Source: Clostridiales bacterium
Lineage (GTDB): Bacteria > Bacillota > Clostridia > Christensenellales > Aristaeellaceae
Reading direction: 5' to 3'
Length of the DNA stretch: 32,000 nt
NCBI GenBank assembly: GCA_004556155.1
Contig: SFIM01000017.1
Span: 14,489 to 46,488 of the forward strand
The translations under genes and the position numbers were made by a program. Shown here one piece after another: positions 4,377-27,167 of this stretch (within the stretch, counting starts at the first letter, position 1; each line of letters begins with the position of its first letter). The notes under the pieces are model-generated. The model was not told the DNA's origin, did no database searches, and saw nothing but the letters and a program-made list of their open reading frames with translations.

Positions 4377-4431
4377 GTGTGTTGCTCCTTTCGCAGATAG
4401 AATGGGATAACGTTATTGTTATACCACCGAG

Positions 4432-4460: not shown

Positions 4461-4481
4461 TAAACAAATTTTAGGCTTTGC

Positions 4482-5543: not shown

Positions 5544-5577
5544 TGCGGATCCCCCCCTTGTTGTTACAAGAATATGC

Positions 5578-5606
5578 TTGCAAACGGCGCGGTTATTTCA
5601 TATAAT
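5578..5606 (+). promoter_or_regulatory. Sigma-70-type promoter of the phosphoglucomutase gene
   Basis: TTGCAA (5578-5583), 17 nt, TATAAT (5601-5606), 30 nt upstream of the ATG. Confidence 0.55.
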
Positions 5607-5635
5607 TAAGTTGGAAATTTAAGGGGGTATGTAGC

Positions 5636-7360: not shown

Positions 7361-7398
7361 ATAGTTGATAAAATTACCCTAAATGTTTCATATTCTAC

Positions 7399-7427
7399 TT
7401 GACTTTGTAATAAAAACGTAATACAAT
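7399..7427 (+). promoter_or_regulatory. Sigma-70-type promoter of the SH3b wall-protein gene
   Basis: TTGACT (7399-7404), 17 nt, TACAAT (7422-7427). The track's ATG at 7426 lies inside this -10 box, so it is not the start codon. Confidence 0.55.
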
Positions 7428-7470
7428 GCAGGTGGAAGATTCTGCGCAAGGGCGCATTACGAGGTGGGCT

Positions 7471-10400
7471 ATGAACAGAAACACGAACACACATCATGCC
7501 ATGCGGATTCGGGTATTGAGCCTGCTGGCTGCGCTGATGCTGGCGCTGGGCGTTTTGCCCGCTGCGCTGGCTGAAGACGGGCAGTACGGCTATGTCAATT
7601 TTGACAATGTGCGTTTCCGTAAGCAGGCCAACGATACCGTGGTGTGGGACAAGCTCAACAACGGTTGGGTATGCAAAATCCTGGGCACCAAGTCGGCCGG
7701 CGGCGTGAATTATTACTATGTATCCACCAATCTGCCCGCGTATCTGGATCGTGAGTATTACGGCTATATCAGCCAGCAGTACATCACCCTGATGAGCGAG
7801 GCCGAGGCGGACGCCTGGCAGAAGCAGGGCGGCAATGCCACCGTGCTTGGCGGCAGCACGTCCTCTTCTGGCGACAGCGGCACGGATACCGCCAACAATG
7901 TGACGGCGCTGACCAACTATGCCCGTCCCAATAACGCCAGCACCAATTATTATCATTATGAGGGCGGCGTGCTTACCAGCCTGGGTCTGCTCTCCGCGGG
8001 CGAGGCCTATTATGTGACCGGCACAGCCACCATCAACAGCACGATTTATTACATCATCACCGTCAACGGCGCGGATTGCTATGTGCGCGGCAGCAACATG
8101 ACCATGTTGAGCAGCGATACCACCACCGCGCCCGCGCCGACTACTGCGCCCTCCGGCGGCAATGATCCGGTGGGCACCATCGTGATTACTCCCGAGGGCA
8201 ATACCAACCTGCGCAAGTCTGCCGCGATCCTGGATAACAACAGCATCGCCAAGCTGCCTCAGGGCACCGAGCTGCCTTACTATTACACCGTGCAGAGCGG
8301 CGGAAGCACCTGGTATTATTGCTACAGCGCGGATAACAACGCCTTTGGCTATATCATCGCCACCTGCGCCACGGTGAAATCCACCGCCGGCACTACGACC
8401 ACCCTGCCTACCACCACCAACGATCCTTCCAGCATTCTGGGCTATGTAAAGATGAATGTGAAGGGCCGCACCAACATCCGCAGCCAGGCCAAGGCCGGCA
8501 CGGGCAACCGCGTGGGCTATGCCGAGGAGGGTCAGGTGCTGCCCTACTATGCGGTCAAGATCGTCAGCGGCGCTACCTGGTATTATGTGTACAGCAGCAC
8601 CGAGGATGTGTTTGGCTATGTGCTGGGCACTTGCTGCTTTAAGAGCGACGCGTCGGGCAATCCCATCGCCGCCGCCCCCACCGCGCCCAACGTCACCGCC
8701 GCGCCCAGCGGCGCGCAGGGCTACATCAAAACCACCGATTCCGTCAACGTGCGCAAGAGCGCCAGCATCACCTCCGCCCGCATTGCCAAGCTGGATAAGG
8801 GCGTTGTGGCTCCCTACAGCGCGGCTGTGTCCGTGGGCGGCACCACCTGGTACAAGATCGTATACAACTTTGAAACCGGCTATGTGATGGGCGATTACTG
8901 CGCGCCCTGCGACGCCTATGGCAATACCTCCACCAAGCCCCAGAACGTCACCTCCGGCTATCTGATGACCACGCGCGACAAGGTGTATCTGCGCAGAGCC
9001 GCCAGCGCCTCCGCGGGCGTGTATGGGCAGGTGCCCGCGCAGGGTACCGTTCTGCAAATCGTGGGCAAGGCTCGCTATGCCAACGGCTACTACTGGTACA
9101 ATGTCGCCTATAATGGCGATATCGGCTATATGCGCGGGGACTGCATCAGCGTGATGTCCCCCGAGCAGGTATCGGCTTACCTGAGCGGCAAGCCCATGCC
9201 CACCGCCACGCCCACCCCCACCCCTGTGCCCAAGGCGACCAAGTATATCCAGACCACCCTGGACAAGGTGTGGCTGCGCCAGTCGCCCTCCAGCAAGGCG
9301 GGCACCATCGGCCAGGCTGCGCTGGGCGCGGTATTCAAGTTTGATTCCAAGGTCAAGGTCAGCGGCGTGGAGTGGTACAAGCTCACCGTCGGCGGCAACG
9401 AGTGCTACATCCGCGGCAACTGCGCCAAGGTGATGAACGACGCTGAATACAGAGATTATCTGAACAACCAGCCCACGGCCAAGCCCACCGCTACGCCCAC
9501 GGCTGTGCCCGATCTGTCCAAGCTGAGCACCACCTTCATCACCACCAAGGAAAAGGTGGTCGTCCGCGCCGAGGGCAATCCCAGCGCGCGTCAGGTGGGT
9601 CTGATCTACACCCAGGGTACGGGCGGCAAGATCAGTGGCGCCACCAACGTGGTGGACGGCGTAACCTGGTATGGCGTCACCATCAGCGGTGTGACCGGCT
9701 GGATCCGCGGCGACCTGGTGCGCATCCTGACCAAGACGGAAGAAGCCGAGTATATCAAGAGCGGCGATCCCGACTCCAAGCCTGAAGCCAGCTACACCAC
9801 CCTGCAGCTGGGCTCCACCGGTGAGGCGGTGCGCAAGGTACAGGTCCGTCTGGCTGAGCTGGGCTACATGAGCAACAGCCAGATCAACAGCGTATTTGAC
9901 AGCAACACTGCCAGCGCCATCAGCCGCTATCAGGAAGATCATGACCTGGTTGTGGACGGCATTGCTACCTCCCTGACCCAGCACTCGCTGTTTGGCACCA
10001 GGGAAAAGAGTGAAACCACCAATGGCTCCTCCACCACCGTCACCCTGCATATGCCGAAGCTGATTGACTGGTATACCGGCGGTATCCAGAGCATCTTCTA
10101 CAAGGGCAGCACGGCCGTTGTGACCGATGTGAACACGGGCATCTCCTTCCGCGTAAAGCGCTGGAGCGGCGGCGCGCATGCCGACGTGGAGCCCTTGACC
10201 GCTGCCGATACTGCGGCCATGTGTAAGATCTACAAGGTAAAGACTGCGCAGGAAATCAGCGATAAGAACCTGTATCAGCGCCATCCTGTCTTGGTGACCA
10301 TCGGTGATAATAGCTATGCAGCCTCCATGTACGGCGTGCCGCATAACTACCCGGCCGGCGATACCATCCCGGATAACGACTTCTATGGCCAGTTCTGTAT

Positions 10401-11799: not shown

Positions 11800-12594
11800 T
11801 TATCCAATCACCGCTACCAGCGCGATCATGGCGGCGGTAATCAGCGTGGCGACGGCGTCGGCGCGGGTCAGCTTCAGGATGCGCAGGCGCGTGCGGCCCT
11901 CGCCGCCGTGATAGCAGCGGGCCTCCATGGCCATGGCCAGATCGCCCGCGCGGCGGAACGCGCTGATAAACAACGGCACCAGCAGCGGTACCATGGCCTT
12001 GGCGCGCTGAATGATATTGCCCGATTCAAAATCCGCGCCGCGGGCCATCTGCGCCTTCATGATCTTGTCGGCCTCTTCCAGCAGCGTGGGGATAAAGCGC
12101 AGGGCGATGGTCATCATCATGGCCAGCTCGTGGGCGGGAAAGCCGATCTTGGCAAAGGGGCTGAGCAGCCGCTCCAGGCCGTCGGTCAGCACCACGGGCG
12201 GGGTGGTCAGCGTCAGCAGGCTGGCGCCTGTCACCAGAAAGATCAGCCGGGCGGAGAAGCGCAGCGCCGTCAGCAGGCCTTCCAGCGTGATCTGAATGCG
12301 CCACACATGCACAAGCACCGTATCGCCGGGGCTGAAAAACAGGTTGAGCAGGAAGGTGAAAATCAGGATGAACCGCAGGGGCTTTAGCCCCTTGGCCAGC
12401 AGCTTTAACGGCAGATGCGAGGCATAGGCGGCCAGCACGATAAAGACGATGACGGGCAGGAAGCCCAGCAGGCTTTTGACCAGAAATACGCCCACGATAA
12501 ACGCGATGGTCAGCAGGATCTTGACGCGCGGGTCCAGACGGTGCACCGGGCTTTCAACCGGGTAGTACTGGCCCAGGGTGATATCCTTAAGCAT
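11800..12594 (-). CDS. ecfT: ECF transporter transmembrane (T) component
   Basis: The start is reassigned to ATG 12594 (MLKDITLGQYYPVESPVHRLDPRVKILLTIAFIV, a typical EcfT N-terminus). It overlaps the ecfA2 stop by 8 nt. The protein is a multi-TM protein with the ARG-type coupling motifs (MARGADFE). Confidence 0.9.
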   Translation of the reverse strand: MLKDITLGQYYPVESPVHRLDPRVKILLTIAFIVGVFLVKSLLGFLPVIVFIVLAAYASHLPLKLLAKGLKPLRFILIFTFLLNLFFSPGDTVLVHVWRIQITLEGLLTALRFSARLIFLVTGASLLTLTTPPVVLTDGLERLLSPFAKIGFPAHELAMMMTIALRFIPTLLEEADKIMKAQMARGADFESGNIIQRAKAMVPLLVPLFISAFRRAGDLAMAMEARCYHGGEGRTRLRILKLTRADAVATLITAAMIALVAVIG

Positions 12595-13447
12595 GGATGG
12601 CCGCCTCCTTTCCCAGCGCGCGGCAGATCGCGTCGCACAGCTCCTCATTGGTCAGGCAGTCGGGCACATCCATACCGCCCGCGCGCAAGGCCTGGCACAG
12701 CTGCACGGTCTGCGGAACATCCAGACCCATGGCGGCCAGCTCGTCTCCACGGGAGAAAATTTCCCTCGGCGTGCCAAGCATGGCCAGGCGACCCTTGTGC
12801 AGCACGGCGGCGCGCGTGGCGATGCGCGCCACATCGTCCATGTTATGGCTGATGATGACCATCGTTACGCCGTCCTGATGGAGCTCGTTGATGATCTCGG
12901 TCAGCTCGTCGCGGCCGCGCGGATCCAGCCCCGCGATGGGCTCGTCCAGCACCAGAACGCGCGGATGCATGGCAATTACGCCTGCCAGCGCCACGCGGCG
13001 CATCTGACCGCCGGAAAGGTCAAAGGGGGATTTTTGCAGCGCATCCTCGGGCAGATGCACGCGGGCAAAGGCCTCGCGCACGCGGGCGTCCAGCTCGTCG
13101 CCGGTTAATCCTTGATTTTTGGGGCCGAAGGCGATGTCCTTGTATACCGTTTCCTCAAACAGCTGGTATTCGGCGTATTGGAACAGCAGCCCTACCCGCT
13201 GGCGCAGCGCGCGGCGGTTAGCGCCCTTCTGGTTGATATCCTCGCCGTCCACCAGCACGCGACCCGAGGTGGGGGTAAGCAGCCCGTTCAGGTGCTGCGC
13301 CAGGGTGGATTTGCCGCTGCCGGTGTGGCCGATCAGCGCCAGCAGCTCGCCATCCTCGATGGTAAAATCAATATCCTGCAGCGCGTCGGATTGGAAGGGG
13401 CTGCCGGGCTGGTAAACATGGGACAAGTGTTCAATCTTTATCGGCAT
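12587..13447 (-). CDS. ecfA2: ECF transporter ATPase, second subunit
   Basis: 286 aa with Walker A GHTGSGKST, signature LSGGQMRRVALAG and Walker B VLVLDEP. It has the typical EcfA' N-terminus MPIKIEHLSHVY. It overlaps ecfA1 by 10 nt. Confidence 0.92.
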   Translation of the reverse strand: MPIKIEHLSHVYQPGSPFQSDALQDIDFTIEDGELLALIGHTGSGKSTLAQHLNGLLTPTSGRVLVDGEDINQKGANRRALRQRVGLLFQYAEYQLFEETVYKDIAFGPKNQGLTGDELDARVREAFARVHLPEDALQKSPFDLSGGQMRRVALAGVIAMHPRVLVLDEPIAGLDPRGRDELTEIINELHQDGVTMVIISHNMDDVARIATRAAVLHKGRLAMLGTPREIFSRGDELAAMGLDVPQTVQLCQALRAGGMDVPDCLTNEELCDAICRALGKEAAIHA

Positions 13448-14271
13448 TTCAGCACCTCCTGAGCCATGGCGCTTACATCCATGGCCTCATGCGCGATGGG
13501 CAGGCCGCGCGCGCGCAGCAGATCGCCCAGCGCCACCATGGGCGGCACATCCAGGCGCATGGCGCGCAGACGCTCCGCCTGGCTGAACACGGCCTTGGGC
13601 GTGTCGTCCATCACCACCTGGCCGTCGTCCATCACGACCACGCGGTCGCAGCGCGCGGCCTCTTCCATAAAGTGAGTAATCCATACTACCGTGATTCCCT
13701 GCTCACGGTTGAGGCGGCTGACGGTATCAAATACCTCGCGGCGGCCGCGGGGATCGAGCATGGCGGTGGATTCATCCAGAATCAGCGCTTTGGGCTGCAT
13801 GGCCAGGATGCCCGCAATGGCGATGCGCTGCTTTTGGCCGCCCGACAGGGTGTGGGGGGCGCGATCGATGAATGGGAGCATCTCCACCTGGCGCAGCGCG
13901 GTTTCAATGCGCGCGGGCATCTGGGCGGAGGGCACGCCGATGTTTTCCAGGCCGAAGGCCACATCATCGCGCACGATGGAGGCTACCAGCTGGTTATCGG
14001 GATTTTGAAATACCATGCCCGCGCTGCGGCGAATATCCCAGGTGTGCTCATCCTCCTGGGTATCCATGCCGCACACGGTAACATGACCCTCGGTGGGAAT
14101 ATACAGCCCGTTAAGCAGCTTTGCCAGCGTGGATTTGCCGCTGCCATTGTGCCCAAGTACGGCTGTCATTTCGCCTGTGCGGAAGCCTAAGGTCACGCCG
14201 CGAACGGCCATACCCTCGCTGTCCTCATAGGCGTAGCTTACATTGTCTGCGCGTAGAATCAAATCTTCCAT
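13438..14271 (-). CDS. ecfA1: ECF transporter ATPase, first subunit
   Basis: The start is reassigned to ATG 14271 (MEDLILRADNVSYAY), which follows GGAGG (14280-14276). It has Walker A GHNGSGKST, signature LSGGQKQRIAIAG and Walker B ALILDEST. The track's upstream extension would begin inside or upstream of the promoter. Confidence 0.9.
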   Translation of the reverse strand: MEDLILRADNVSYAYEDSEGMAVRGVTLGFRTGEMTAVLGHNGSGKSTLAKLLNGLYIPTEGHVTVCGMDTQEDEHTWDIRRSAGMVFQNPDNQLVASIVRDDVAFGLENIGVPSAQMPARIETALRQVEMLPFIDRAPHTLSGGQKQRIAIAGILAMQPKALILDESTAMLDPRGRREVFDTVSRLNREQGITVVWITHFMEEAARCDRVVVMDDGQVVMDDTPKAVFSQAERLRAMRLDVPPMVALGDLLRARGLPIAHEAMDVSAMAQEVLKCR

Positions 14272-14302
14272 GAATCCTCCGGGTGACATAAAAATACAGC
14301 CT

Positions 14303-14331
14303 ATTATAGCACGAAGATGCGCGGCGCACAA
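14303..14331 (-). promoter_or_regulatory. Sigma-70-type promoter of the ecfA1-ecfA2-ecfT operon
   Basis: On the minus strand: TTGTGC (14331-14326), 17 nt, TATAAT (14308-14303), with TGC immediately upstream (extended -10). Confidence 0.5.
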
Positions 14332-17092: not shown

Positions 17093-18580
17093 TTACTTGG
17101 CTGCGTAGCCCAGGGCGACCAGCTGCTCGGCACAGATATCCAGATAACGCTGGAAGTCGTAGGTTTTGTACAGCTCATCGATGAACTGATCATACTCGGC
17201 TACCGGGCGCTCACCCTTAACAAAGGCAATCAGCTGCATGTTGACATAGTTTTCAAGGTCGGACAGGTAGAAATCCGCAGGGATTTCAACGGACTTGTTA
17301 TAGATGATGTAGCGGGGCGTGTTCAGACAATAGGCGACCACATCGGCGGCTTCGGGAAACTTGAGGGCCAGATAGGCGGCTTCCTCGCGACCCAGAATCT
17401 GATATTTGTAGGCGTACAGGGTTTCGGTCTTGCCGCGCTCGGTCATGGTGATGGAGTTATCCGCGTTGCGCTGCCAGTGATCGCCCTCCAGACCCACATA
17501 AACCATCATGGAGCCTTCGTCGGTGCACAGGTACTGCAGCACCTTGAAAATGGCTTCCAGCTTCTCCTCGGAGACGTTGGCGTTGATGACATACTTGTCG
17601 CGGGTGTTGCGATTGTAATCCAGAATGCCGTATACGCTTTCCGCGCCTTCGATTTCGCTGGCCATCGGGCCGCACCAGCCATATACCAGATCGGGATTGA
17701 TTTCATGCGCCTGGGTCAGGTAAGCGGCCTTGGAAATGTCAGACCACTTCATTACGGATACGCCGAAGTTGCCCGAGAGGGTATGAGCTTTGATTTCGCT
17801 CTTTGCACCCAGAATATCGGGATCTACCAGGCCGGCTTCAAAGAACTTGCGGATCATGGTCAGCGCGTCCTTCATGCCGGGCTGCAGCAGGGAACTGGTT
17901 ACTTTGTTATCGCGCACGATCACATAATTGCCCAGGCCGGCATCATAAGCATTGGCAATCGCGTCCAGCGCCTGCAGTCCATAGCCGGTGAAGCCGATGG
18001 TGTCCTTCTGACCGTTTTGATCCAGATCGGCCGCAGCGATTGCAGAGCAGAATTCAAACAGGCCTTCTACCGTGGTGGGAGCCTGCAGATTTAGCTTGTC
18101 CGCCCAATCCTGACGGAAATACATGGTGTAGTAGGCGTTATCCTGATAGTCGTTGGTGGGAATCATGTACATGCGATCGTTGTAGTACAGGTAGGGGGTG
18201 TCTACGCTGTCGCCGAACTTATCGAAGATGCACTTGAGACCGGTTTCCTTGTAGGGGGTCAGGTCCAGCAGCATATCCTGCGCAGCGTAGGTGCGCATGG
18301 TATCGGCATTGACGATGAACATATCGGGCGCATCGTCATTGGCTACCAGCAGGTTCAGAGTTTGGGCATAGTTGTCCAGCGGGGACATGACGAACCGAAC
18401 GCCTGTCTTTTCAAGAATTTGCTGCTGGATGAAATTCTCATCCTCGGATGCAGGCCAGCCGGTGGGCGTGCCGTTCATGGCGACGGTGATCTCGATGGGG
18501 GCCTCGGCAGCGGCGGATGCGGCCAGGCAGCACAGTGCCAGCACTGCGCACAGAATCAGGGAAAGTGTGCGTTTGAACAT
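17093..18580 (-). CDS. Large extracellular solute-binding protein of a carbohydrate ABC importer (LplA-like)
   Basis: 495 aa with signal peptide MFKRTLSLILCAVLALCCLAASAAA. Its size and sequence style match the family-1 binding proteins that pair with LplB/LplC permeases. ATG 18580 follows AAGGAGGAAA. Confidence 0.9.
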   Translation of the reverse strand: MFKRTLSLILCAVLALCCLAASAAAEAPIEITVAMNGTPTGWPASEDENFIQQQILEKTGVRFVMSPLDNYAQTLNLLVANDDAPDMFIVNADTMRTYAAQDMLLDLTPYKETGLKCIFDKFGDSVDTPYLYYNDRMYMIPTNDYQDNAYYTMYFRQDWADKLNLQAPTTVEGLFEFCSAIAAADLDQNGQKDTIGFTGYGLQALDAIANAYDAGLGNYVIVRDNKVTSSLLQPGMKDALTMIRKFFEAGLVDPDILGAKSEIKAHTLSGNFGVSVMKWSDISKAAYLTQAHEINPDLVYGWCGPMASEIEGAESVYGILDYNRNTRDKYVINANVSEEKLEAIFKVLQYLCTDEGSMMVYVGLEGDHWQRNADNSITMTERGKTETLYAYKYQILGREEAAYLALKFPEAADVVAYCLNTPRYIIYNKSVEIPADFYLSDLENYVNMQLIAFVKGERPVAEYDQFIDELYKTYDFQRYLDICAEQLVALGYAAK

Positions 18581-18630
18581 GGTGTTTCCTCCTTTTTTAT
18601 CATTAAAGCAATTCGTGCTTTAAGATTCCT

Positions 18631-19485
18631 TTAGCCCTTGACCGCGCCGGCCAGAGTGCCTTTAACAAAGTACTTTTGGATAAAGGGATATACGACGATG
18701 ATAGGCGCGGTGGCGTAGCAAACAGCAGCCATTTTGAGGGTTTCGGTCGGTACCAGCTCCTGATCGGCAGCGTTTCGGCTGGCGTCCAGCAGGCGGCGCA
18801 GAATCACCTGCAAGGGCTTTAGCTGATCTTTGGTGATGTAGTAGATGGACAAGAGATAGCAGTTCCAGTGATCTACCGCGTAGTACATGCCGATAGTCAG
18901 GATGATCGGCAGCGCCATGGGCAGGATCAGGTGCCAGAGAATGCGAAACTCATTGGCTCCATCGATGCGCGCAGCCTCGAATAATTCCTCCGGCAGTCCT
19001 TCAAAAAAGGCTTTCATGATTACCAGGTTATACGCGCTTACCAGCGTAGGCACGATCATGGCCCACAGGGTGTTGATCAGCCCGGTTTTGCGAACAATCA
19101 GGTATGTTGGCACAATCCCAGCGTCAAAGAGCATGCAGAACATGACGATTTTCATCATTGCCCCAGATAGCGGCATGCTGTGTCGGCTGAGGGGATAGGC
19201 CAGCATCAGGGTGACGACAAGGTTCAAGGCGGTGGCGATCACCGTCAGCTTGACCGTTACCCACATGGCGTGGCTCAGCGCGCCGTCAGCCAGCATTTCT
19301 ACATAGGCTACATTGGTGAATTTGCGGGGAATGAGCACGAAGCCGCCGTTTTTAAGCAGCTCGGAATACGGCGTTACGGAGGCGGAGATGACGAACAGCA
19401 CCGGGATCAGGCAGATCAGCCCCACCGTAAAGATGATGACGTATACCAGAATATTGAACAGCACATCGCCTTTTGACTTTACCAT
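18631..19485 (-). CDS. Carbohydrate ABC transporter permease (LplC/MalG-like)
   Basis: The start is reassigned to ATG 19485 (MVKSKGDVLFNILVYVIIFTV...), which follows GGGAG and overlaps the upstream stop (ATGGTAA). It has the EAA loop EAARIDGANEFRILWHLILPMALP. Confidence 0.9.
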   Translation of the reverse strand: MVKSKGDVLFNILVYVIIFTVGLICLIPVLFVISASVTPYSELLKNGGFVLIPRKFTNVAYVEMLADGALSHAMWVTVKLTVIATALNLVVTLMLAYPLSRHSMPLSGAMMKIVMFCMLFDAGIVPTYLIVRKTGLINTLWAMIVPTLVSAYNLVIMKAFFEGLPEELFEAARIDGANEFRILWHLILPMALPIILTIGMYYAVDHWNCYLLSIYYITKDQLKPLQVILRRLLDASRNAADQELVPTETLKMAAVCYATAPIIVVYPFIQKYFVKGTLAGAVKG

Positions 19486-20432
19486 ATTGCGCACTCCCAC
19501 TTTCTGGCCAGCCGGTTGGTGGCAAACACCAGCATGAAGCTGATCACGCTTTTCAGTAGACCCACAGCAGTGGACAGGCTGTAATTGAGTTTGCCAAGAC
19601 CCTCTGTGTAAATCCAAGTGTCGATAATCTCGCCGCTTTGGCGCACGCTGTCGTTCATCATCACGTTTACCTGGGTAAAACTGACGTTGAGGATTTTGCC
19701 TACGTTCATAATCATCAGCACCACGAATATTTTGCGAATGCCGGGCAGGGTCACGTGGATGATTTGGCGCAGGCGCCCGCAGCCGTCTACCGTGGCGGCC
19801 TCATACAGCGTAGTATCCACGCCCATGATGGCCGCGATGTAGGTGATGGCGCCCCAACCCAGGTTTTTCCACAGGTCTGAACCAATCAATACGCCGCGAA
19901 AGTATTTGTTGCTGGTAAGGAAGGGGATGGTTTTGCCGCCGAAGGACTTGATTAATCCATTGATTACGCCCGTGCTTTCAGATAGCATGGTCAGGCAGAT
20001 ACCGTATACTACCGCCCAGGAGAGAAAATGCGGCAGGTAACTGACCGTCTGGATGGCGCGTGCCACATATTTATTGCGGCATTCGCTGATGGCCAGGGCG
20101 AAAATCAGCGGCGGTAGTAGCCCCACCACCAGCTTACCCAGGGACAGTGTGATGGTGTTGGTGATGATGCGCACATTGGAGGGGCTACGGAAAAAGTATT
20201 TGTAATGTTGATACCACGGCTGCGCCCAGGGGCTGCCCCAAATCCCTTTTTTGATAGTGAAGTTTTTGAATGCGATTACTGCGCCGAAAATGGGCACGAT
20301 TTTGTAGATGATAAAGTACAGCATGCCGGGGATAGCCATCAGATATAGCGGCCAGTACCGGCGCAGCGCGCGCAGTATGCGGTCGCGCAGCGAGCCGCGG
20401 AGGGCGGGGGAAACGGTAGAGACGTGCATCAT
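19479..20432 (-). CDS. Carbohydrate ABC transporter permease (LplB/MalF-like)
   Basis: 317 aa with the EAA loop EAATVDGCGRLRQIIHVTLPGI. ATG 20432 follows GAAGGAGG and overlaps the oxidoreductase stop (ATGA). Confidence 0.9.
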   Translation of the reverse strand: MMHVSTVSPALRGSLRDRILRALRRYWPLYLMAIPGMLYFIIYKIVPIFGAVIAFKNFTIKKGIWGSPWAQPWYQHYKYFFRSPSNVRIITNTITLSLGKLVVGLLPPLIFALAISECRNKYVARAIQTVSYLPHFLSWAVVYGICLTMLSESTGVINGLIKSFGGKTIPFLTSNKYFRGVLIGSDLWKNLGWGAITYIAAIMGVDTTLYEAATVDGCGRLRQIIHVTLPGIRKIFVVLMIMNVGKILNVSFTQVNVMMNDSVRQSGEIIDTWIYTEGLGKLNYSLSTAVGLLKSVISFMLVFATNRLARKWECAIW

Positions 20433-22324
20433 GCCTGGCCTCCTTCGCTGCCGTATACGCGCACCTCATAGATGCGTGCGGCGGGGAGTCCATTGGTGGC
20501 TCGGATTTCGATGCGCACGGCGTCGCAGACGACGTTGTCAAAATCAATGCGATTGAGACGCTGGCAGTTTTCGCGCACCGCCCTGCGGGCAACCTCCTGA
20601 CCGTCTCTGAGCAGCACAACGTCATAATCCCGCAGCAGTTCGGGCGGCACGCCGGGCAGCTGCTCCGCCTGACGCTTGGGGGACATGGTGATTTTCAGAG
20701 GCCGGGAAAGGTTGGTGTCCAGCGTCAATTGCACCTGGGCGACGGCATGTGCCTGCGGCAGCGTGAGCATCACGCTGGGCAGCCCCTCGGAAAGCGGAGC
20801 CGATTGCCACACGTTGGAGTGGCCATCCACCATGCGGGTAACGCCGCTGAGCAGGTTGATTGCCTCGCAGCCGGGCGTTTCGCTGCTGGCGGATACCTGT
20901 GCGCCGTGAGCCAGGTCGTTGGGATCCTCATTGCCAAAGCCGGGCAGGTAGCAATCGTCCCGCAAAAGCTGCTGCTGCACCTCGCGGATATACTGCGAAG
21001 GCAGATCGCTCAGCTCACATCCATGCTGCAGAGCGATGGCTGCTGCCGTGCCCATGGCCTGGCCGCCCACCGCGCAGGTGGCAATGACGCGTGCCGAGGA
21101 CATGGCCAGCTTGCTTGCGCCCAATGCGCGGCCCCCGGCCAGTAGATTGGGCACGTTACGCGAGATAAAGGAGCGAAGGGGGATGGTGTAGCAGCCGGGG
21201 AAGGCGTACATGAAGCTGGGGGGATTATCAAAATTGAACAGCCCGCCTACATGCACGTCCATGGGCCAGCCACCATAGGCGACGGCGTCGTCAAACACGC
21301 GGTTGCTGAGCACATCGTTTTCATTGAGCATGTATAGCGCCTGCATGCGGCGGCTTTCGCGCATGCCGGGCAGCATGCCCACCCAGGCCAGCTCATAATT
21401 GTCCGCGCCGTGATCGCCCTCGTTTTTGATGTGATTCCAGATGCCGTATACGCACTTGAGCACTTCGTCGCGGATGTCCTCGTATTCCGAGATGATATCC
21501 TCCTGGTGGCCGGGTACCTCGATCCACCAGTAGCCATACTCCAGGCAGTATTTCTCAATGGCCTTGTCACCCGCTACCTGGTGCGTTTCATCCAGCAGAG
21601 CGCTGCCTGTTTCATGCTGATCTACACTGTACAGTGAGCCTACGTTGCCGTGATGGCGGAAGCGCAGCTGATCTTCGGTGAAGTGATATACCTCGATGGG
21701 CGGCGTAAAGGGCACGGGATGATCGCGGCGCACAGCTTTGAAAAACAGCGTGTTGCCCATGCGCTGGTTATCGGCCTGATCCTGGGCGTGGGGTTCGTTG
21801 TAGGTAGCCTTATCCTCGCGGCCGGTGGTGTAATCAGCCCCGGACATAAAGCCCAACGTCAGGTTGCCGGTGCAGTCAATGAAGATGCGGCCGGTGATGT
21901 GCCAGTGAATTTCAGTGGTGCCTTGATAACAGGTGATGCCGGTGATGCGCCCATCCTGCATGTCGCAGTCGTACATATCAGTATTCAAATAAACAGTCAG
22001 GTTCTTTTCCTGGCGCACACTGTTGTACAGCACGGCGTCCCAGACGGAAAAATTATAGTCTGGGTTTACGCGCTTGTTTTCCAGCAGGATTTCCTGAAAA
22101 ATGCCGGTTTCTTCCAGATCGGGTTTGATATGATTGGCAGTTGCGCCGCATGCGCCTACGCGGATCTCGCTGCTGGCATTGCCGCCAAGCACAGGACGGG
22201 CGTGTATCAGTGCGGTTTTAACGCCCAGGCGCGCGCAAGCTTTAGCGGCGCAGATGCCTGTCATGCCGCCTCCGACAACCACCACGTCAAAATCCGCCGA
22301 TTGATTTTTAGAACGTATCGACAT
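20429..22324 (-). CDS. Cytoplasmic FAD-dependent oxidoreductase (FAD_oxidored/PF12831-like) with a C-terminal galactose-binding-like (F5/8 type C-like) domain
   Basis: 631 aa with no signal peptide. It has the dinucleotide fold FDVVVVGGGMTGICAA and the motif RPVLGGNASSE. The last ~147 residues (20432-20872) end in ...VRIEIRATNGLPAARIYEVRVYG, the hallmark ending of discoidin-type domains. ATG 22324 lies 6 nt after GAGGTG. Confidence 0.85.
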   Translation of the reverse strand: MSIRSKNQSADFDVVVVGGGMTGICAAKACARLGVKTALIHARPVLGGNASSEIRVGACGATANHIKPDLEETGIFQEILLENKRVNPDYNFSVWDAVLYNSVRQEKNLTVYLNTDMYDCDMQDGRITGITCYQGTTEIHWHITGRIFIDCTGNLTLGFMSGADYTTGREDKATYNEPHAQDQADNQRMGNTLFFKAVRRDHPVPFTPPIEVYHFTEDQLRFRHHGNVGSLYSVDQHETGSALLDETHQVAGDKAIEKYCLEYGYWWIEVPGHQEDIISEYEDIRDEVLKCVYGIWNHIKNEGDHGADNYELAWVGMLPGMRESRRMQALYMLNENDVLSNRVFDDAVAYGGWPMDVHVGGLFNFDNPPSFMYAFPGCYTIPLRSFISRNVPNLLAGGRALGASKLAMSSARVIATCAVGGQAMGTAAAIALQHGCELSDLPSQYIREVQQQLLRDDCYLPGFGNEDPNDLAHGAQVSASSETPGCEAINLLSGVTRMVDGHSNVWQSAPLSEGLPSVMLTLPQAHAVAQVQLTLDTNLSRPLKITMSPKRQAEQLPGVPPELLRDYDVVLLRDGQEVARRAVRENCQRLNRIDFDNVVCDAVRIEIRATNGLPAARIYEVRVYGSEGGQA

Positions 22325-22371
22325 AACTTACACCTCATAAGATATCAATTGCGATGCTGATTACGGAATAT

Positions 22372-22400
22372 AAGATACAATTGTTTTGTAAATATGTCAA
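22372..22400 (-). promoter_or_regulatory. Candidate promoter of the FAD-oxidoreductase/ABC operon
   Basis: On the minus strand: TTGACA (22400-22395), 17 nt, TATCTT (22377-22372). The perfect palindrome ACAATTGT (22377-22384) overlaps the -10/spacer. Confidence 0.45.
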
Positions 22401-22480
22401 TAGAAATGCAACATAAATAATGCATGTATCTAAAAATATTTGTTAATGATTTGTATGTATTTAAAATTGAATACTAAATA

Positions 22481-22509
22481 TTGACAGCTATATAAAAGTC
22501 TGATACAAT
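22481..22509 (+). promoter_or_regulatory. Near-consensus promoter of the GntR-family regulator gene
   Basis: TTGACA (22481-22486), 17 nt, TACAAT (22504-22509), with TGA immediately upstream (extended -10). The track's ATG at 22508 lies inside the -10 box. Confidence 0.6.
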
Positions 22510-22543
22510 GACTGCATTCCATCAAGCAAAAGGAGAGAATCCC

Positions 22544-23266
22544 TTGGCTAAACGATATCAGGAGATTGTGGACTATATAAAAGAAAAGATTGATTCTACA
22601 GCTTGGCCTGTGGGGTATAAACTGCCGCGGGAGGTGGATCTGTGCACGGAGTTTGACGTGAGCCGCACCACCATTCGCCGGGCGCTGTCTGTGCTGGTGG
22701 CGGATGGACATCTACAGCGCGTTAAGGGCACGGGCACCTTCGTTACCCAGCCCAAGATCATCGAGAACACATCCATTTTTATTGAGAGCTTTGCCGAAGA
22801 GCTGCGCGAGCGCGGGCTGAGCGTGGTGACAGAGGTGCTTGAATTTCGTCCTATCGCGGCGGAAGGTTCTGTTGCCACACATTTGCAGGTTGCGCCGGGA
22901 GAGCAAGTGGTCAAGCTGTGCCGCTTACGTTATGCCGGCGGAAACTTTGATAAAGGCCCGATTGTGTTGACCACGTCCTATTTTCCCAATGATGTGGGCA
23001 AGATCATGATGCGTTATGATATGGAAAAGAATTCTGTGCGCCACCTGTGCCAGATGAACGGCATCATTCGCGCGCGCACGCAAAAGCGCCTGACAGCCGT
23101 GCAGCTGCCTGCGCGAGAGCGGCGGCTGCTGGGCGCGCAGGATAACGATTTGTTTATCTCTATTACCTCCGAAATCCGCGATATCAACGCTCGCTGCGTG
23201 GAGTATGTGGAAAGCTATTATCCTGTGGATCGTAATGAGTTCACCATTAGCACTCTATCGCATTGA
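22544..23266 (+). CDS. GntR-family transcriptional regulator, HutC subfamily (wHTH plus UTRA effector domain)
   Basis: The start is reassigned to TTG 22544, 8 nt after AGGAGA (22531-22536). The N-terminus (M)AKRYQEIVDYIKEKIDSTAWPVGYKLPREVDLCTEFDVSRTTIRRALSVLVADGHLQRVKGTGTFV is a classic GntR wHTH. The ~160-residue C-terminal part has HutC/UTRA length and style. Confidence 0.85.
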   Translation: MAKRYQEIVDYIKEKIDSTAWPVGYKLPREVDLCTEFDVSRTTIRRALSVLVADGHLQRVKGTGTFVTQPKIIENTSIFIESFAEELRERGLSVVTEVLEFRPIAAEGSVATHLQVAPGEQVVKLCRLRYAGGNFDKGPIVLTTSYFPNDVGKIMMRYDMEKNSVRHLCQMNGIIRARTQKRLTAVQLPARERRLLGAQDNDLFISITSEIRDINARCVEYVESYYPVDRNEFTISTLSH

Positions 23267-23279
23267 CGCGGTTTCGTGC

Positions 23280-23315
23280 TTGTTTACAAGCGCTGCCTGT
23301 GATAAAATACAGGCA
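23280..23315 (+). promoter_or_regulatory. Candidate promoter of the radical-SAM operon, with an inverted repeat bracketing its -10 box
   Basis: TTGTTT (23280-23285), 17 nt, TAAAAT (23303-23308), preceded by TGA. A perfect 7-bp inverted repeat, TGCCTGT (23294-23300) / ACAGGCA (23309-23315), encloses the -10 exactly. Confidence 0.45.
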
Positions 23316-23361
23316 TGCCGGGCGAAGCGCCGTGCGCCGTCCGCAATGGGAGGAACAAAGG

Positions 23362-24489
23362 ATGAAGATTTCTAAACGCGACGCGCTGCTGTGGTTTCGC
23401 TTTTTTGCTCAGATGCCTGAGGACGAGCCGCTGATGCCCCATCAGCGGGAGCTGGCATATGCTGTGATTGCACAGATTGAAACGGCGGCCGAGGCGCGCT
23501 TTGACAGCCTGATGCGCGAGATTCCGCATTTGAAATCGCTAAACGGCCGTACCTACTATGTGGGCAGCGATGAAAAGTTTTCCAAGGGCTGCCGCTCCTG
23601 CCTGACCGGCACAGGGCTGAGTGCCGTGCGAAAAACCAATAAATGCAATATGCAGTGCCCGTTCTGCTATGATTACGGCATGCTGGACTGCCAGGAGCCC
23701 ATCGGCGAGGGCATGTGGGAGATTGGCGGCACCAAGTTCCGCGAAGACGATATGGAACTGCTGCTATCTATCCAGAAGAAGCCCACGGGTATCGCCTATG
23801 TGTATCTGGAACCGTTTATGGAAATTGAAAAGTACTACGGCGTGATCCGCACCTTCCATGCCGCGGGCGTGCATCAGCACATGTACACCAACGGAACCCT
23901 GGCTACGGAGGAGAATCTGCGCGCGCTGGGCGAGGCGGGACTGGATGAGCTGCGCTTCAATCTGGGCGCAAGCAACTGCGCCGACAAGGTGATCGAGGCC
24001 ATGGCTATCGCCCGTAAGTACATTCCCTTCGTCGGCATCGAAACGCCTATGACGCCGGCCTTTTATGAGGGATTCCAGCGCAAAAAGGCGCAGATTTTCG
24101 CAGCTAAGTCTGACTTTATCAACTGCGCTGAGCTGCATCTGAACGATAACAATCTGCAAAATTACGCCGGGGAAAACCTGTATATGTCCCGTCACGGCTA
24201 TGTTTCGCCCATTTGGAGCCGCGAATTGACGCTGAAGCTGATGCGGCAGGCAGATGAGGAAAACTGGGATATGCTGGTGCATGATTGCAGCAATCGCACC
24301 AAGTTTGCCCGTGATTTAAACCTGCGTGCCCATGAGGGCGGCTGGTTTGGCAGCAGCACCTATGGCTGCGAGTTTGAGCGCATTCCTTACGCCGCCTTCC
24401 TGCCCGTGCTGGAGGACGAGAGCTTCCGCTTCCTGGAGGAGGATGAAAAGCTGCCCTATGGCTATAATCCTGGGGATATTGTGCTGTAA
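23362..24489 (+). CDS. Radical SAM enzyme of unassigned function
   Basis: The start is reassigned to ATG 23362 (MKISKRDALLWF...), which follows GGGAGGAA. The CX3CX2C cluster CNMQCPFC is at 23644-23667, preceded by KGCRSC (CxxC). Downstream segments (IAYVYLEPFMEIE, HMYTNGTLATEENLRALGEAGLDELRFNLGA) are typical of the radical SAM half-barrel. Confidence 0.85.
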   Translation: MKISKRDALLWFRFFAQMPEDEPLMPHQRELAYAVIAQIETAAEARFDSLMREIPHLKSLNGRTYYVGSDEKFSKGCRSCLTGTGLSAVRKTNKCNMQCPFCYDYGMLDCQEPIGEGMWEIGGTKFREDDMELLLSIQKKPTGIAYVYLEPFMEIEKYYGVIRTFHAAGVHQHMYTNGTLATEENLRALGEAGLDELRFNLGASNCADKVIEAMAIARKYIPFVGIETPMTPAFYEGFQRKKAQIFAAKSDFINCAELHLNDNNLQNYAGENLYMSRHGYVSPIWSRELTLKLMRQADEENWDMLVHDCSNRTKFARDLNLRAHEGGWFGSSTYGCEFERIPYAAFLPVLEDESFRFLEEDEKLPYGYNPGDIVL

Positions 24490-24500
24490 GGGGGCCATGC

Positions 24501-25550
24501 ATGACCGTTCAAAAGGATTTGAAGGAACGGCTGATTGACGATATTGAAAAGCTGCCTGCGCATACCAAGCTGCCCTCGCGCACCGAACTGAGCGCGCAGT
24601 ATTACGTCAGCCGGCAGACAATGGACGTGGTGATTAACACCCTGTGCCGCGAAGGATATCTATATGCCCTGCGCGGAGCGGGCACCTATGTGGCGGATCC
24701 CGCGGCCAATATTGTGATGGGCGGCGGACTGACGCGCCGCACTATCGGCCTGGTGCTGCCTACCTACGGCATTAACATATCGCCGCAATTGGAAAAAGGC
24801 GCGGTAGAGGAAGCTGCGCGCCATGGGTTGAACGTGGTGTGCTGCGTAACGGATCATAATGATCGCAAGCAGATGAGCCATTTGCGCCGGCTGGTCAACA
24901 GCAACTGCGCGGGCGTATTGACCATGGCCCCCGACGGCTCGGATGGCCGGGATATGGCGGCGCTTTTGCATGCCGCGCGCGTGCCGGTGGTGTGGCTGCT
25001 GTCCAAGCCAAAATCCGAGTACGACGCGCCGGTGATTCAGTACAACGATATCAGCGTCAGCACCCTATCCGTGCAGCATCTGTACAACCAGGGGTATCGG
25101 CGCATCGGCTATGTGTGCAATCACATCAGCGCGCAGCCCGGCATGCCCAATATGGGGCTGGCGGCGGCGCTGCGAATGCTGAATTTGCCCATCGATCCGG
25201 CCTGGACGCTGCAAATGCACGCAACGGACGAAATCTTTATCGAGCAGGTGGCGCGCATGCTGTCCCATCCCAACCGCCCCGATGCGCTGACTTGTTTTAA
25301 TGATACCGTTGCGGCCAGTGTGTATGAAGCGGCGCGGCGCGCGGGATTGCGCGTTGGGGCTGATCTTGGCGTGATTGGCAAGGATAAGACCTTTACCGTG
25401 GGCTTGCAGGCCTTCATTCAGGAAAATACCACCAACTGGGTCAACATGGCCGCTGCCACGGTGCTGGGCTTGATTCCTGTGCTGATCCTGTTTTTGAGCT
25501 TCCAGAAAACCTTTATCGCTGGCATGACCAGCGGCGCCGTCAAGGCGTAA
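24501..25550 (+). CDS. Chimeric ORF: AraR-type regulator (GntR wHTH plus LacI-type sugar-binding domain) truncated after ...ADLGVIG and fused in frame to a permease C-terminus. It is probably a decayed gene.
   Basis: Residues 1-67 form a GntR-type wHTH (LPSRTELSAQYYVSRQTMDVVINTLCREGYLYALRGAGTYV). Residues ~80-293 have LacI/PBP1 style (IGLVLP..., GYRRIGYV, CFNDTVAASVYEAARRAGLRVGADLGVIG). From residue ~294 the sequence switches to KDKTFTVGLQAF...GAVKA. Confidence 0.75.
   Translation: MTVQKDLKERLIDDIEKLPAHTKLPSRTELSAQYYVSRQTMDVVINTLCREGYLYALRGAGTYVADPAANIVMGGGLTRRTIGLVLPTYGINISPQLEKGAVEEAARHGLNVVCCVTDHNDRKQMSHLRRLVNSNCAGVLTMAPDGSDGRDMAALLHAARVPVVWLLSKPKSEYDAPVIQYNDISVSTLSVQHLYNQGYRRIGYVCNHISAQPGMPNMGLAAALRMLNLPIDPAWTLQMHATDEIFIEQVARMLSHPNRPDALTCFNDTVAASVYEAARRAGLRVGADLGVIGKDKTFTVGLQAFIQENTTNWVNMAAATVLGLIPVLILFLSFQKTFIAGMTSGAVKA
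25380..25550 (+). pseudogene. 3'-terminal fragment (~57 codons) of a MalG-type carbohydrate ABC permease gene
   Basis: KDKTFTVGLQAFIQENTTNWVNMAAATVLGLIPVLILFLSFQKTFIAGMTSGAVKA follows the conserved C-terminal pattern of MalG-like permeases. That pattern is D..YTL.VG[LM]Q.F......W....AA.V....P.[LI][LI].F...Q+.F..G.T.G.VK[GA], as in the E. coli MalG tail. No upstream permease body is present. Confidence 0.7.
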
Positions 25551-25578
25551 TCGTATAGAAAAGGAAAAAGTAAACCAT

Positions 25579-26391
25579 ATGAAAAAACTTGCATTGTACA
25601 TGTCCTCTACCCACATGCCGCAAAAGGCGGATTGGCTCTCCTGCGTAACGGTTGCGGCGGACGCCGGCTTTGACGGGCTGGAGCTGTTTGGCGCTCGCTA
25701 CACGCGCGAGGCCGATATGACCCCGGATCAGCTGGACGCGATTGCCCGCGCCGCGCGGGCGCGCAATTTGACACTGTCGGGCCATCCCTGGGTGGAATGG
25801 GGCGATCTGCCGCTGGCTGCGCTTTTGCCCAGGCTTGACCGGCTGTGCGATGACTGCGCACGGCTGGGTGAGCGCGAAGTGGTACTGCATATGGATTTTC
25901 TTTCGCACCGGCAAAACGGGGGCATGGAGCGGCTCTTTGCGGCGATTGACCGCATGTATCCTATCCTGCAAAGGGAGGGGATGACCCTGATGATGGAGAA
26001 CGTGCCGGCGCACGGCATCCGTGAGCTGGGCTCTGAAACCGAAGATTTTACGCAGCTGTTTGCCCGCTATGCCGATGAAACTGGCCCGGTGCAGATGAAC
26101 ATCGACAGCGGCCATGCTTATATTATGAACATGGCGGAGACGCTTTCTCAGCGCTTTGGCAGCCGCTGGCGCTATGCGCATATTGACGATAACGACGGCG
26201 TGGAGGATTCGCATGTTGCGCCTGGCGAGGGCACGCTTGACTTTGCGGCCTTTGCCGCCTGTGCCGCGCAGGCGGGCTATCAGGGGCCGCTGATGATGGA
26301 ATATGCCATGGGCAAGGTGGCGTTTGGCATGCAGGCGCTGCGCGATGCATACGGCGCGCAAGGCTATGATCTGCATGCGCTCAAGCTGTAA
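25579..26391 (+). CDS. Xylose-isomerase-like TIM-barrel protein ('sugar phosphate isomerase/epimerase' family, PF01261-like)
   Basis: 270 aa. The pattern AGFDGLELF ... VVLHMDF ... LMMENV ... NIDSGHA ... LMMEY gives the E/D/H/E metal-ligand spacing typical of this fold. ATG 25579 follows AAAGGAAAAAG. Confidence 0.85.
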   Translation: MKKLALYMSSTHMPQKADWLSCVTVAADAGFDGLELFGARYTREADMTPDQLDAIARAARARNLTLSGHPWVEWGDLPLAALLPRLDRLCDDCARLGEREVVLHMDFLSHRQNGGMERLFAAIDRMYPILQREGMTLMMENVPAHGIRELGSETEDFTQLFARYADETGPVQMNIDSGHAYIMNMAETLSQRFGSRWRYAHIDDNDGVEDSHVAPGEGTLDFAAFAACAAQAGYQGPLMMEYAMGKVAFGMQALRDAYGAQGYDLHALKL

Positions 26392-26447: not shown

Positions 26448-27167
26448 TTATCGCAGCCATTGGGCTGCGTTTTGCTTTAAAACGAGCCTGCACTGCGGCC
26501 AATCGGGCGCTAACCTGGACAGCAGGGCGTAAAAGCCGCTGCCGTGGTTGGGATAAATCAGGTGGCACAGCTCATGCGTAACGACCATGCGGATGCATGC
26601 TGGCGGGGCCTGGATCAGCCTGCGATTGAGGGTGATAACGCCCTTTTGCGGCATGCAGGAACCCCAGCGGCTTTTCATATCTCGAATGCGTAGCGCAGGC
26701 TTGGCCGCGCCTAAATGGGCGAATGGGGGATAGGCTGCGTCCAGCGCGGCGGAAAATACGGACTGACATTGGCTGCCGATAAAACTCTCCGTCAGGCGTT
26801 TGCGGGCGGCAGAGTCCGCCGGATGCCGCAGGCGCAGCAGCAACGTATCATCCTGCCATACTGCCTCGTCGCGCGTGCCCTGCACAGCGCGCAGCGTTAC
26901 GCTGCGGCCAAGCAACTGGATGACTTCGCCATCTGCATATGTGCGCGGTGTGGGAGCCATGGCGGATTGCGCCTGCTGGATGGCAAGAATCTGCTTCGAT
27001 TTGCTGGCTACAAAAGCATCGATCAATGTACGGCTTGTCCCAAAGGGCGCGGAAACATAGACGCTGCCGTCCGGGCGAATGCGCAGATTGACGTTCTTGA
27101 TGGGCTTTTCTTCCAGCGTGTAGTGAAGGTGCTGATCCTGCACCCGTACGGTGCGTTCCGTTTTCAC
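26448..27167 (-). CDS. YgjP/DUF45-type (M48-like) zinc metallohydrolase
   Basis: 239 aa with the pattern RWGSCMPQKGVITLNRRLIQAPPACIRMVVTHELCHLIYPNHGSGFYALL (HExxH plus downstream H). The start is GTG at 27167, 11 nt after AAAGGAG. The nearby ATG at 27177 is out of frame and only 1 nt from the SD. Confidence 0.82.
   Translation of the reverse strand: MKTERTVRVQDQHLHYTLEEKPIKNVNLRIRPDGSVYVSAPFGTSRTLIDAFVASKSKQILAIQQAQSAMAPTPRTYADGEVIQLLGRSVTLRAVQGTRDEAVWQDDTLLLRLRHPADSAARKRLTESFIGSQCQSVFSAALDAAYPPFAHLGAAKPALRIRDMKSRWGSCMPQKGVITLNRRLIQAPPACIRMVVTHELCHLIYPNHGSGFYALLSRLAPDWPQCRLVLKQNAAQWLR

Follow-up and report, generated by a model that had tools for sequence, protein, structure and literature searches.

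A hydrolase-free sugar-uptake locus of a gut Clostridiales bacterium is probably made of three independently inherited modules

The window analyzed here is a stretch of 32,000 nucleotides from contig SFIM01000017.1 of a Clostridiales bacterium. Its interval 17093-26391 encodes a flavin adenine dinucleotide (FAD) oxidoreductase, a radical S-adenosylmethionine (SAM) enzyme and a TIM-barrel protein, together with regulators and parts of ATP-binding cassette (ABC) sugar importers. A sequence-only reading of this interval had combined the three enzymes into one redox- or radical-based route for processing an imported glycoside. The orthologues of the three enzymes are not co-localised in other genomes, and the interval is therefore better seen, with considerable though not full confidence, as three independently inherited modules that lie side by side, not as one pathway. 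The modules, which lie between an AzlC gene (left) and a YgjP-like gene (right), are the following:

17093-23266, module A: gene of a HutC-type GntR regulator, divergent from an operon for a flavoprotein, two permeases and a binding protein
23362-24489, + strand, module B: stand-alone radical SAM gene
24501-26391, + strand, module C: remnant of an operon for an AraR-type regulator, an ABC importer and a TIM-barrel protein

Pfam searches recover every gene that the sequence-only reading had described, each open reading frame (ORF) at its proposed position. They also agree with it that no glycoside hydrolase, phosphorylase or kinase is encoded within 17093-26391. Its description of a sugar-uptake-type locus without a hydrolase is accurate as well, the only enzyme of the conserved core being a cytoplasmic flavoprotein with a lectin-like domain.

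The separation of the modules is seen in gene neighborhoods on both sides of the comparison. For the flavoprotein, we collected 80 genome loci whose homologues are 36-72% identical to it, each with flanks of at most 10 kb; tblastn finds the radical SAM gene in 0/80 of them and a TIM barrel of the window's type likewise in 0/80. Conversely, genes for the FAD oxidoreductase, the binding protein and the TIM barrel are seen in none of 76 radical SAM loci from other species, and FAD, ABC and TIM-barrel neighbors are equally missing from four radical SAM loci that were looked up separately. Among 80 metagenome loci with the radical SAM gene, 105 of whose 160 flanks exceed 3 kb, only four have the window's FAD, GntR or AraR-type neighbors, and these four come from the same species or a very close relative. 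The sequence-only reading had staked its three-enzyme route on the co-occurrence of these orthologues, and they do not co-occur (0/80, 0/76 and 0/4, respectively). The adjacency of the three enzymes in the window is an accident of gene order.

Module A, on the other hand, is a conserved unit. It consists of these elements:

17093-18580, - strand: extracellular solute-binding protein of CUT1 type, 495 residues, last gene of the leftward operon (PF01547, SBP_bac_1, E 6.4e-12)
18631-19485, - strand: ABC permease of LplC/MalG type, 284 residues (PF00528, BPD_transp_1, E 1.7e-14)
19479-20432, - strand: ABC permease of LplB/MalF type, 317 residues (PF00528, BPD_transp_1, E 3.3e-10)
20429-22324, - strand: FAD_oxidored flavoprotein, 631 residues (PF12831, E 2.5e-87, profile positions 1-416 of 416)
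22325-22543: divergent control region, 219 bp, with promoter-like sites at 22481-22509 (+) and 22400-22372 (-)
22544-23266, + strand: GntR regulator of the HutC subfamily, 240 residues counted from TTG at 22544 (GntR, E 2.7e-19; UTRA, E 4.9e-23)

The genes for the binding protein, both permeases, the flavoprotein and the GntR/UTRA regulator stay together in loci L014, L015 and L016 (comparison loci are designated here by L numbers), where the flavoprotein is, respectively, 72%, 59% and 54% identical to that of the window; the GntR regulator of L014 is 59% identical. No radical SAM or TIM-barrel gene is found near the module A genes in these three loci.

Within the leftward operon, the stop codon of the FAD gene and the start codon of the first permease gene overlap in ATGA, and the two permease genes share 7 nt, ATGGTAA. 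The translational coupling through ATGA-type overlaps that had been proposed for this operon is thus correct for the first junction and has to be amended for the second. The LplC/MalG-type permease is called as a protein of 284 residues also on other contigs of the same species. The nearest solved relatives of the binding protein are AlgQ1/AlgQ2 and Smon0123-type proteins (E 1e-13 to 1e-11; the matches are restricted to the N-terminal half), which bind alginate and unsaturated chondroitin oligosaccharides; there is no NCBIfam equivalog for it. The binding protein and both permeases are accompanied by no ABC_tran gene within 17093-26391; CUT1 systems often rely on an ATPase that is shared and encoded at a distance. 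ABC_tran genes occur at 12587-14331; they adjoin a CbiQ-type gene and are read as belonging to an energy-coupling factor (ECF) transporter.

The regulator has the confirmed architecture of the HutC subfamily, with an N-terminal GntR winged helix and a C-terminal UTRA effector domain. The AT-rich, divergent character that had been ascribed to the control region is evident: it lies in the kilobase with the lowest GC content of the window (0.48) and contains the two best-matching sigma-70-like sites found in the region, which face outward and have 11/12 and 10/12 matches. ATGTAT repeats at 22422-22430 and 22448-22462 are candidates for the HutC operator, and the blocks AAATACATACA.ATC and GATACA.GC are conserved between this region and the corresponding intergenic region of L014.

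The flavoprotein covers the whole PF12831 profile, has no signal peptide and is read as cytoplasmic. Its FAD domain comprises residues 13-453, with the GxGxxG dinucleotide-binding motif VVVVGGGMTG at residues 14-23, and is followed by a domain similar to CBM32/F5-8-C at about residues 475-625 (nt 20450-20902). The RESRR motif and residues H358, R399 and R412 are invariant. The AlphaFold (AF2) model of the protein has a pLDDT of 68.7 and a pTM of 0.76. In this model the C-terminal 150 residues form a beta-sandwich, which Foldseek matches to the lectin domain of lectinolysin, the CBM32 module of NanJ and the fucose-binding modules of SpX (E 3e-10 to 1e-8, template-modelling (TM) scores of 0.78-0.85 normalized to the target). 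PF00754 gives no Pfam match in the window flavoprotein; the predicted structure confirms a galactose-binding-like domain of the CBM32/F5-8 type C fold, and the earlier description of a cytoplasmic FAD oxidoreductase with such a domain is upheld. For the N-terminal part, Foldseek returns only generic flavoprotein folds of the GR2 type (TM 0.3-0.4). A search of PDB sequences yields matches that are limited to the 40-residue dinucleotide-binding motif, with no solved structure for the family, and NCBIfam has no equivalog for the protein. Many human-gut contigs of an uncultured 'Clostridiales bacterium' carry a gene for an identical flavoprotein. On metagenome contig L110 (104-988), the GntR regulator is 99.6% identical to that of the window, the AraR-type regulator about 99% and the radical SAM protein about 96% over most of its length; the FAD gene has an overall identity of 48%, with divergence past codon 55 or so. 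The contig is probably either an assembly chimera or a case of replacement of the flavoenzyme allele in some strains.

The family to which the flavoprotein belongs is large, with more than 7000 homologues in Clostridia, Bacteroidota, Verrucomicrobiota, Planctomycetota, Spirochaetota, Gemmatimonadota and other phyla. Literature searches on PF12831/FAD_oxidored, including combinations with sulfatase, polysaccharide utilization locus (PUL) and twin-arginine, found no characterised member. Four genes on each side of the flavoprotein gene were clustered for 77 loci, and representatives of the clusters were annotated; the fetched loci were called by longest ORF, which is crude in GC-rich DNA, so that the neighbor counts are rough and are likely to be too low. 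Among neighbors without a transport function, sulfatases occur most often (23 genes in 13 loci), and one lies directly upstream of the FAD gene in L015, as well as in L009, which encodes a 59%-identical homologue (P0004). A second PF12831 paralogue stands beside the flavoprotein homologue in 17 loci. ABC permeases are found in 16 and 13 loci, with binding proteins also recurrent, and other repeated neighbors are AraC and GntR/UTRA regulators, SusC/SusD, GH2, GH141/GH43, CstA and FGGY kinases. A protein of about 590 residues, whose single match is Laminin_G_3, is encoded in L015 (6613-8397, between GntR and the sulfatase/FAD pair) and in L016 (7800-9569, between GntR and the FAD gene). It is missing from the window and may be an unrecognised glycoside hydrolase of module A-type systems.

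Homologues from Bacteroidota bear twin-arginine signal peptides, as would be anticipated for enzymes that are exported folded and with their cofactor. In many cases the next gene encodes an unannotated secreted or anchored protein of 330-390 residues, 'unk373' (L057, L065, L067-L070, L073, L084 and L089). This protein contains a conserved DAV(S/T)GAT motif that resembles the [S/T]GA[S/T] site of covalent flavin mononucleotide (FMN) attachment, and has no Pfam match, FMN_bind included, even at E 10. To judge by the motif, it is a possible electron-transfer partner of the Bacteroidota enzymes.

Module B is made of a single gene:

23362-24489, + strand: radical SAM protein, 375 residues (PF04055, E 1.2e-8)

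The CX3CX2C motif of the protein, C95-N-M-Q-C99-P-F-C102 (nt 23644-23667), is invariant in 17 homologues, and an additional invariant CxxC (C77 and C80, residues 77-80) precedes it by 15 residues. The protein has an N-terminal helical domain, and its homologues (L010-L013 and L100-L176), like the window protein, are 374-375 residues long. It is 72-78% identical across many Clostridia, a much higher level of conservation than that of the flavoprotein. A strong ribosome-binding site of its own, GGGAGG, precedes the gene, which starts 95 nt past the GntR stop codon. Pfam and NCBIfam searches detect neither a SPASM domain nor a match to the anaerobic sulfatase-maturing enzyme (anSME) model, and there is no NCBIfam equivalog; the structure model has only generic Foldseek matches (LipA, HydE, SkfB, PylB and PFL-AE). 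In the four loci that were looked up directly, the neighbors are genes for an HD protein, valyl-tRNA synthetase and aldose epimerase. In metagenome loci, integrases, a recombinase, a phosphatase, an aldolase and housekeeping genes recur, with no consistent partner, although this test by neighbor clustering is limited by the close relatedness of many of the genomes. In one strain of the same species, L004, the gene is split in two by a frameshift. Module B amounts to a stand-alone, conserved radical SAM gene that lies here by chance of position.

Module C and the end of the rightward unit contain three features:

24501-25550, + strand: deletion-fusion ORF, 349 residues, in which an AraR-type regulator is fused in frame to the end of a MalG-type permease (Pfam, NCBIfam)
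25579-26391, + strand: AP_endonuc_2 TIM barrel, 270 residues (PF01261, E 2.6e-29)
26452-26479, + strand: terminator-like hairpin that closes the rightward unit, with a 7-bp stem including 6 GC pairs, followed by a T run

The regulator part of the fusion (residues 1-296, nt 24501-25387) consists of a GntR helix-turn-helix and a Peripla_BP domain, a LacI-type sensor, which is incomplete in the window, being cut at residue 296. The tail (nt 25388-25550) is made of the last 53 codons of a MalG-type permease, with the match to the MalG C-terminus at residues 296-348. An intact version of the operon is present in L003, from the same species (2647-7824), and encodes a regulator of 353 residues, a binding protein of 432 residues, permeases of 297 and 276 residues and the same TIM barrel. 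Alignment with L003 shows that 3287 bp are missing from the window, with the junction near 25387, and this proves what the sequence-only reading had called the wreck of an AraR-type regulator and a second ABC system. In L005 (6145-7824) a separate, independent deletion fuses the regulator to the TIM barrel (559 residues). The 349-residue allele is found on 469 contigs, and other length variants have 307, 402 and 549 residues. Since several deletion alleles exist within one species, the second ABC system is being lost repeatedly in the population, and the polymorphism of module C gives the picture of a gut population in which one sugar importer is lost again and again.

L003 differs from the window also just past the YgjP gene (about 27143 onwards in the window, 1-1870 in L003), where LysR and major facilitator superfamily (MFS) genes take the place of the window's genes for shikimate kinase and a Na+/H+ exchanger. 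The locus is therefore bordered by a second breakpoint of rearrangement between strains.

The TIM barrel of module C belongs to a small family, with 36 matches. A 52%-identical homologue is encoded in an operon of the order binding protein, permease, permease and TIM barrel, with genes for a GH20 enzyme and an AraR-type regulator next to it; further members have a DeoR regulator beside them or stand alone, and neither a PF12831 nor a radical SAM gene is found near homologues of the window type in the loci examined. When the family profile is compared with all PDB sequences, the best matches are MJ1311 (3e-11) and endonuclease IV (7e-7). No match to a C-glycoside deglycosidase or an O-glycoside eliminase is obtained in this comparison at E <= 0.1, and the nearest enzyme acting on keto-sugars is 3-keto-D-glucoside 4-epimerase (6wn6, E 0.017 over 49 residues). 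NCBIfam has no equivalog for the barrel, the match to CbiR being weak (25.9 bits against a cut-off of 105). Profile-sequence and multiple alignments with E. coli Nfo, the sequence of which is identical to PDB 1qtw, align invariant H69, H104, E140, D176, H179, H201, D210, H212 and E241 of the barrel with Nfo H69, H109, E145, D179, H182, H216, D229, H231 and E261. We take these nine Nfo residues to be the ligands of the three zinc ions in endonuclease IV; the sugar epimerases of the AP_endonuc_2 fold use only four ligands. By its conserved residues, the window barrel resembles a trinuclear-metal esterase of the kind represented by endonuclease IV and MJ1311, rather than a sugar isomerase or eliminase. 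Because the nine ligands are kept, a phosphoesterase-type activity would be no less likely than that of an isomerase or lyase. The presence of such a site in barrels named 'sugar phosphate isomerase/epimerase' is a warning against reading every AP_endonuc_2 protein of a sugar locus as an isomerase or eliminase.

What module A does can be proposed in outline. The HutC regulator would repress both divergent promoters through the conserved ATGTAT repeats, and the system would be inducible by its substrate. The binding protein would capture an oligosaccharide outside the cell, and the permeases would import it with the help of an ATPase encoded elsewhere. Judging from the solved relatives of the binding protein and from the sulfatases beside the closest flavoprotein orthologues, the substrate is probably anionic, either uronate-containing or sulfated. 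In the cytoplasm, the flavoenzyme would hold the glycan via its CBM32-like domain and perform a redox step, in our preferred guess a dehydrogenation that turns a sugar hydroxyl into a keto group and would so weaken a neighboring glycosidic or ester bond. Dehydrogenation is favored by the precedent of Tat-exported sugar dehydrogenases and by the recurrent pairing of the family with esterases; by this analogy, it is a reasonable possibility that still falls well short of even chances. More generally, and as a tentative proposal that is somewhat more doubtful still, flavoproteins that combine PF12831 with a CBM32-like domain may represent a new class of carbohydrate-active redox enzymes. Such enzymes would process glycans that are anionic (sulfated, phosphorylated or uronate-containing) by non-hydrolytic chemistry, in many cases alongside sulfatases or trinuclear-metal TIM barrels of the endonuclease IV kind, in the cytoplasm behind ABC importers in Firmicutes and as Tat-exported enzymes in PULs of Bacteroidota. 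If this is true, module A, with an importer and a flavoenzyme only, is the minimal case.

Of the other explanations for the gene set, the joint action of the FAD oxidoreductase, the radical SAM enzyme and the TIM barrel in a hydrolase-free cleavage of an imported glycoside would have been the most consequential, as it would have meant a new mode of glycan breakdown in gut anaerobes. The compactness of the locus speaks for it: all three enzymes are encoded within a 6-kb span about a single divergent control region, in an interval without a hydrolase, and a sequence scan finds no terminator-like site between the + strand genes for GntR, the radical SAM protein, the fusion ORF and the TIM barrel. 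The pairing of FAD homologues with AP_endonuc_2 proteins in some other genomes also counts in its favor. Beyond this species, however, this arrangement is not seen (0/80 FAD loci and 0/76 radical SAM loci). The TIM barrel comes from a separate operon that has its own regulator and is undergoing deletion in the population, and it has the ligands of endonuclease IV and no eliminase match at the threshold given above. The radical SAM gene, moreover, is split in strain L004. We regard a three-enzyme route as very improbable. A simpler version, in which the flavoenzyme and the TIM barrel act on one substrate class without the radical SAM protein, has a precedent in other genomes, where AP_endonuc_2-like proteins are detected by hidden Markov model searches in 10 of the 80 FAD loci, and a subfamily different from that of the window is directly adjacent to FAD homologues in five of the 80, plus L007:

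L018, 11864-12769: within 100 bp of the FAD gene
L021, 2739-3572: within 100 bp
L031, 7457-8332: within 100 bp
L044, 11866-12723: within 100 bp
L007, 9855-10778: within 100 bp
L030, 10621-11502: within 1.3 kb

The clostridial operon of L031 is complete, in the order TIM barrel, FAD enzyme, FAD paralogue, permease, permease and binding protein, and a partnership of flavoenzyme and TIM barrel may thus exist elsewhere. These barrels are related to that of the window at about 1e-15 by profile comparison, and keep the nine endonuclease IV ligands in the five sequences aligned (the L007 protein is not among them). In single-sequence comparison, though, the similarity is about 25 bits, as befits a different subfamily; window-type barrels reside in their own AraR-type/ABC operons without a PF12831 gene, and the closest FAD orthologues, in L014-L016, have no TIM barrel nearby. 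A two-enzyme system of this kind is unlikely in the window, and the pairing of oxidoreductase and TIM barrel that had been likened to the logic of DgpBC and CarBC is a weak argument, given the nine-ligand site of the barrel and its proximity to MJ1311 and endonuclease IV.

Two further explanations concern the chemistry of single enzymes. Rather than oxidizing its substrate, the flavoenzyme might be a reductase, for example of the C4=C5 double bond in lyase-made unsaturated uronate oligosaccharides, in the manner of flavoenzymes of the fumarate reductase and urocanate reductase type. This is a serious alternative, even though we would not expect it to be the correct one. It agrees with the probable strictly anaerobic life of the host, with unsaturated uronate oligosaccharides as ligands of the solved relatives of the binding protein, with the FrdA/SdhA flavoprotein subunits and geranylgeranyl reductases among the Foldseek matches, with the invariant arginines and histidine (RESRR, H358, R399 and R412), which could bind a carboxylate or sulfate, and with the DAVSGAT motif, reminiscent of a flavinylation site, in the protein encoded next to the Bacteroidota homologues. 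Yet the fold similarity is generic (TM 0.3-0.4), the window encodes no polysaccharide lyase, and the DAVSGAT protein lacks an FMN_bind match. The radical SAM protein, for its part, might be thought of as an anSME-like sulfatase-maturing enzyme, which would tie it to the sulfatases that are the prevalent non-transport neighbors of the flavoenzyme family (13 loci plus L009). Against this stand the missing SPASM domain, on the grounds of which we rejected the identification (Pfam, NCBIfam), the absence of cysteine motifs for auxiliary 4Fe-4S clusters and of an anSME model match, the generic nature of the Foldseek matches and the lack of a sulfatase in the window; the chance that this assignment is right is close to nil.

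Several observations nevertheless weigh against three unconnected modules or against the role proposed for module A. With no terminator-like site detected between them, the + strand genes may be co-transcribed, and hence co-regulated, in this organism. The FAD-adjacent TIM subfamily of other genomes means that the position of module C beside module A may perhaps not be pure chance. As to the proposed role, confidence in the flavoprotein model is low in the putative substrate-binding regions, and the likeness of the binding protein to uronate binders is modest and confined to its N-terminal half. With these reservations, three separate modules are still the arrangement that we favor. The family of more than 7000 flavoproteins in glycan-utilization loci of Clostridia, Bacteroidota, Verrucomicrobiota, Planctomycetota and others, for which no characterised relative was found, is of moderate interest, and an operon in which such a protein is the only enzyme offers a clean entry point to the substrate and chemistry of the family.

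Elsewhere in the window, a gene at 2730-4376 (- strand), located between a glycogen synthase gene (828-2528) and a gene for a binding-protein-like product, encodes a protein of 548 residues. FMN_bind (E 1e-16) is matched at its N-terminus, with no annotation for the rest of the chain, and the product is possibly a flavinylated redox protein located outside the cytoplasm.

Among known systems, those for oxidative (3-keto) glycoside cleavage, i.e., DgpA/DgpBC, CarA/CarBC, the OGE of A. tumefaciens and the AL/BT cluster BT2156-2160, resemble the locus in having an oxidoreductase near a protein of the AP_endonuc_2 fold, a sugar-uptake context and no Koshland-type glycosidase. They also share with the scheme suggested for module A the idea of a redox step in place of hydrolysis. 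Known pathways of oxidation, elimination and hydration rely on Gfo/Idh/MocA or GMC oxidoreductases, co-inherited lyases annotated as 'sugar phosphate isomerase', and DUF1080 proteins (10.1101/2024.03.25.586180; PMC10628242). In the window, by contrast, the oxidoreductase is a PF12831 protein with generic Rossmann matches only, and Pfam detects no Gfo/Idh/MocA or GMC domain within 17093-26391. The lyases of the known systems are inherited together with their oxidoreductase, whereas the TIM barrel of the window derives from another operon, has the nine-ligand site of endonuclease IV and shows no detectable match to lyases of the DgpBC, CarBC or AL/BT type. The DUF1080 hydratase of the AL/BT-type pathways is missing from the locus. 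As none of the defining features is seen, the locus should not be filed with the oxidative glycoside cleavage systems; the general idea of redox chemistry instead of hydrolysis is not excluded for module A.

The importer of module A is similar to CUT1 importers with binding proteins of the AlgQ/Smon0123 type, sharing with them a binding protein of about 500 residues, two MalF/MalG-type permeases and an operon that includes no ATPase gene. Those importers are linked to lyases and to GH88/GH105 hydrolases, whereas the only enzyme linked to module A is the flavoprotein. The TIM barrel, in turn, resembles the endonuclease IV/MJ1311/CbiR branch of AP_endonuc_2, i.e., the trinuclear-metal phosphoesterases, in keeping all nine Nfo ligands, and differs from it in context, which is a sugar ABC operon in the window and DNA repair or cobamide metabolism in the endonuclease IV/CbiR branch. 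The remaining parallel is with periplasmic Tat-exported FAD sugar dehydrogenases, such as the GMC-type glucoside 3-dehydrogenase. Those enzymes belong to the GMC fold family, and the window flavoprotein is a cytoplasmic PF12831 protein of the GR2 type. The Bacteroidota homologues of the latter share with them the twin-arginine signals and sit in glycan-utilization loci, which fits a role as cofactor-loaded periplasmic sugar redox enzymes.

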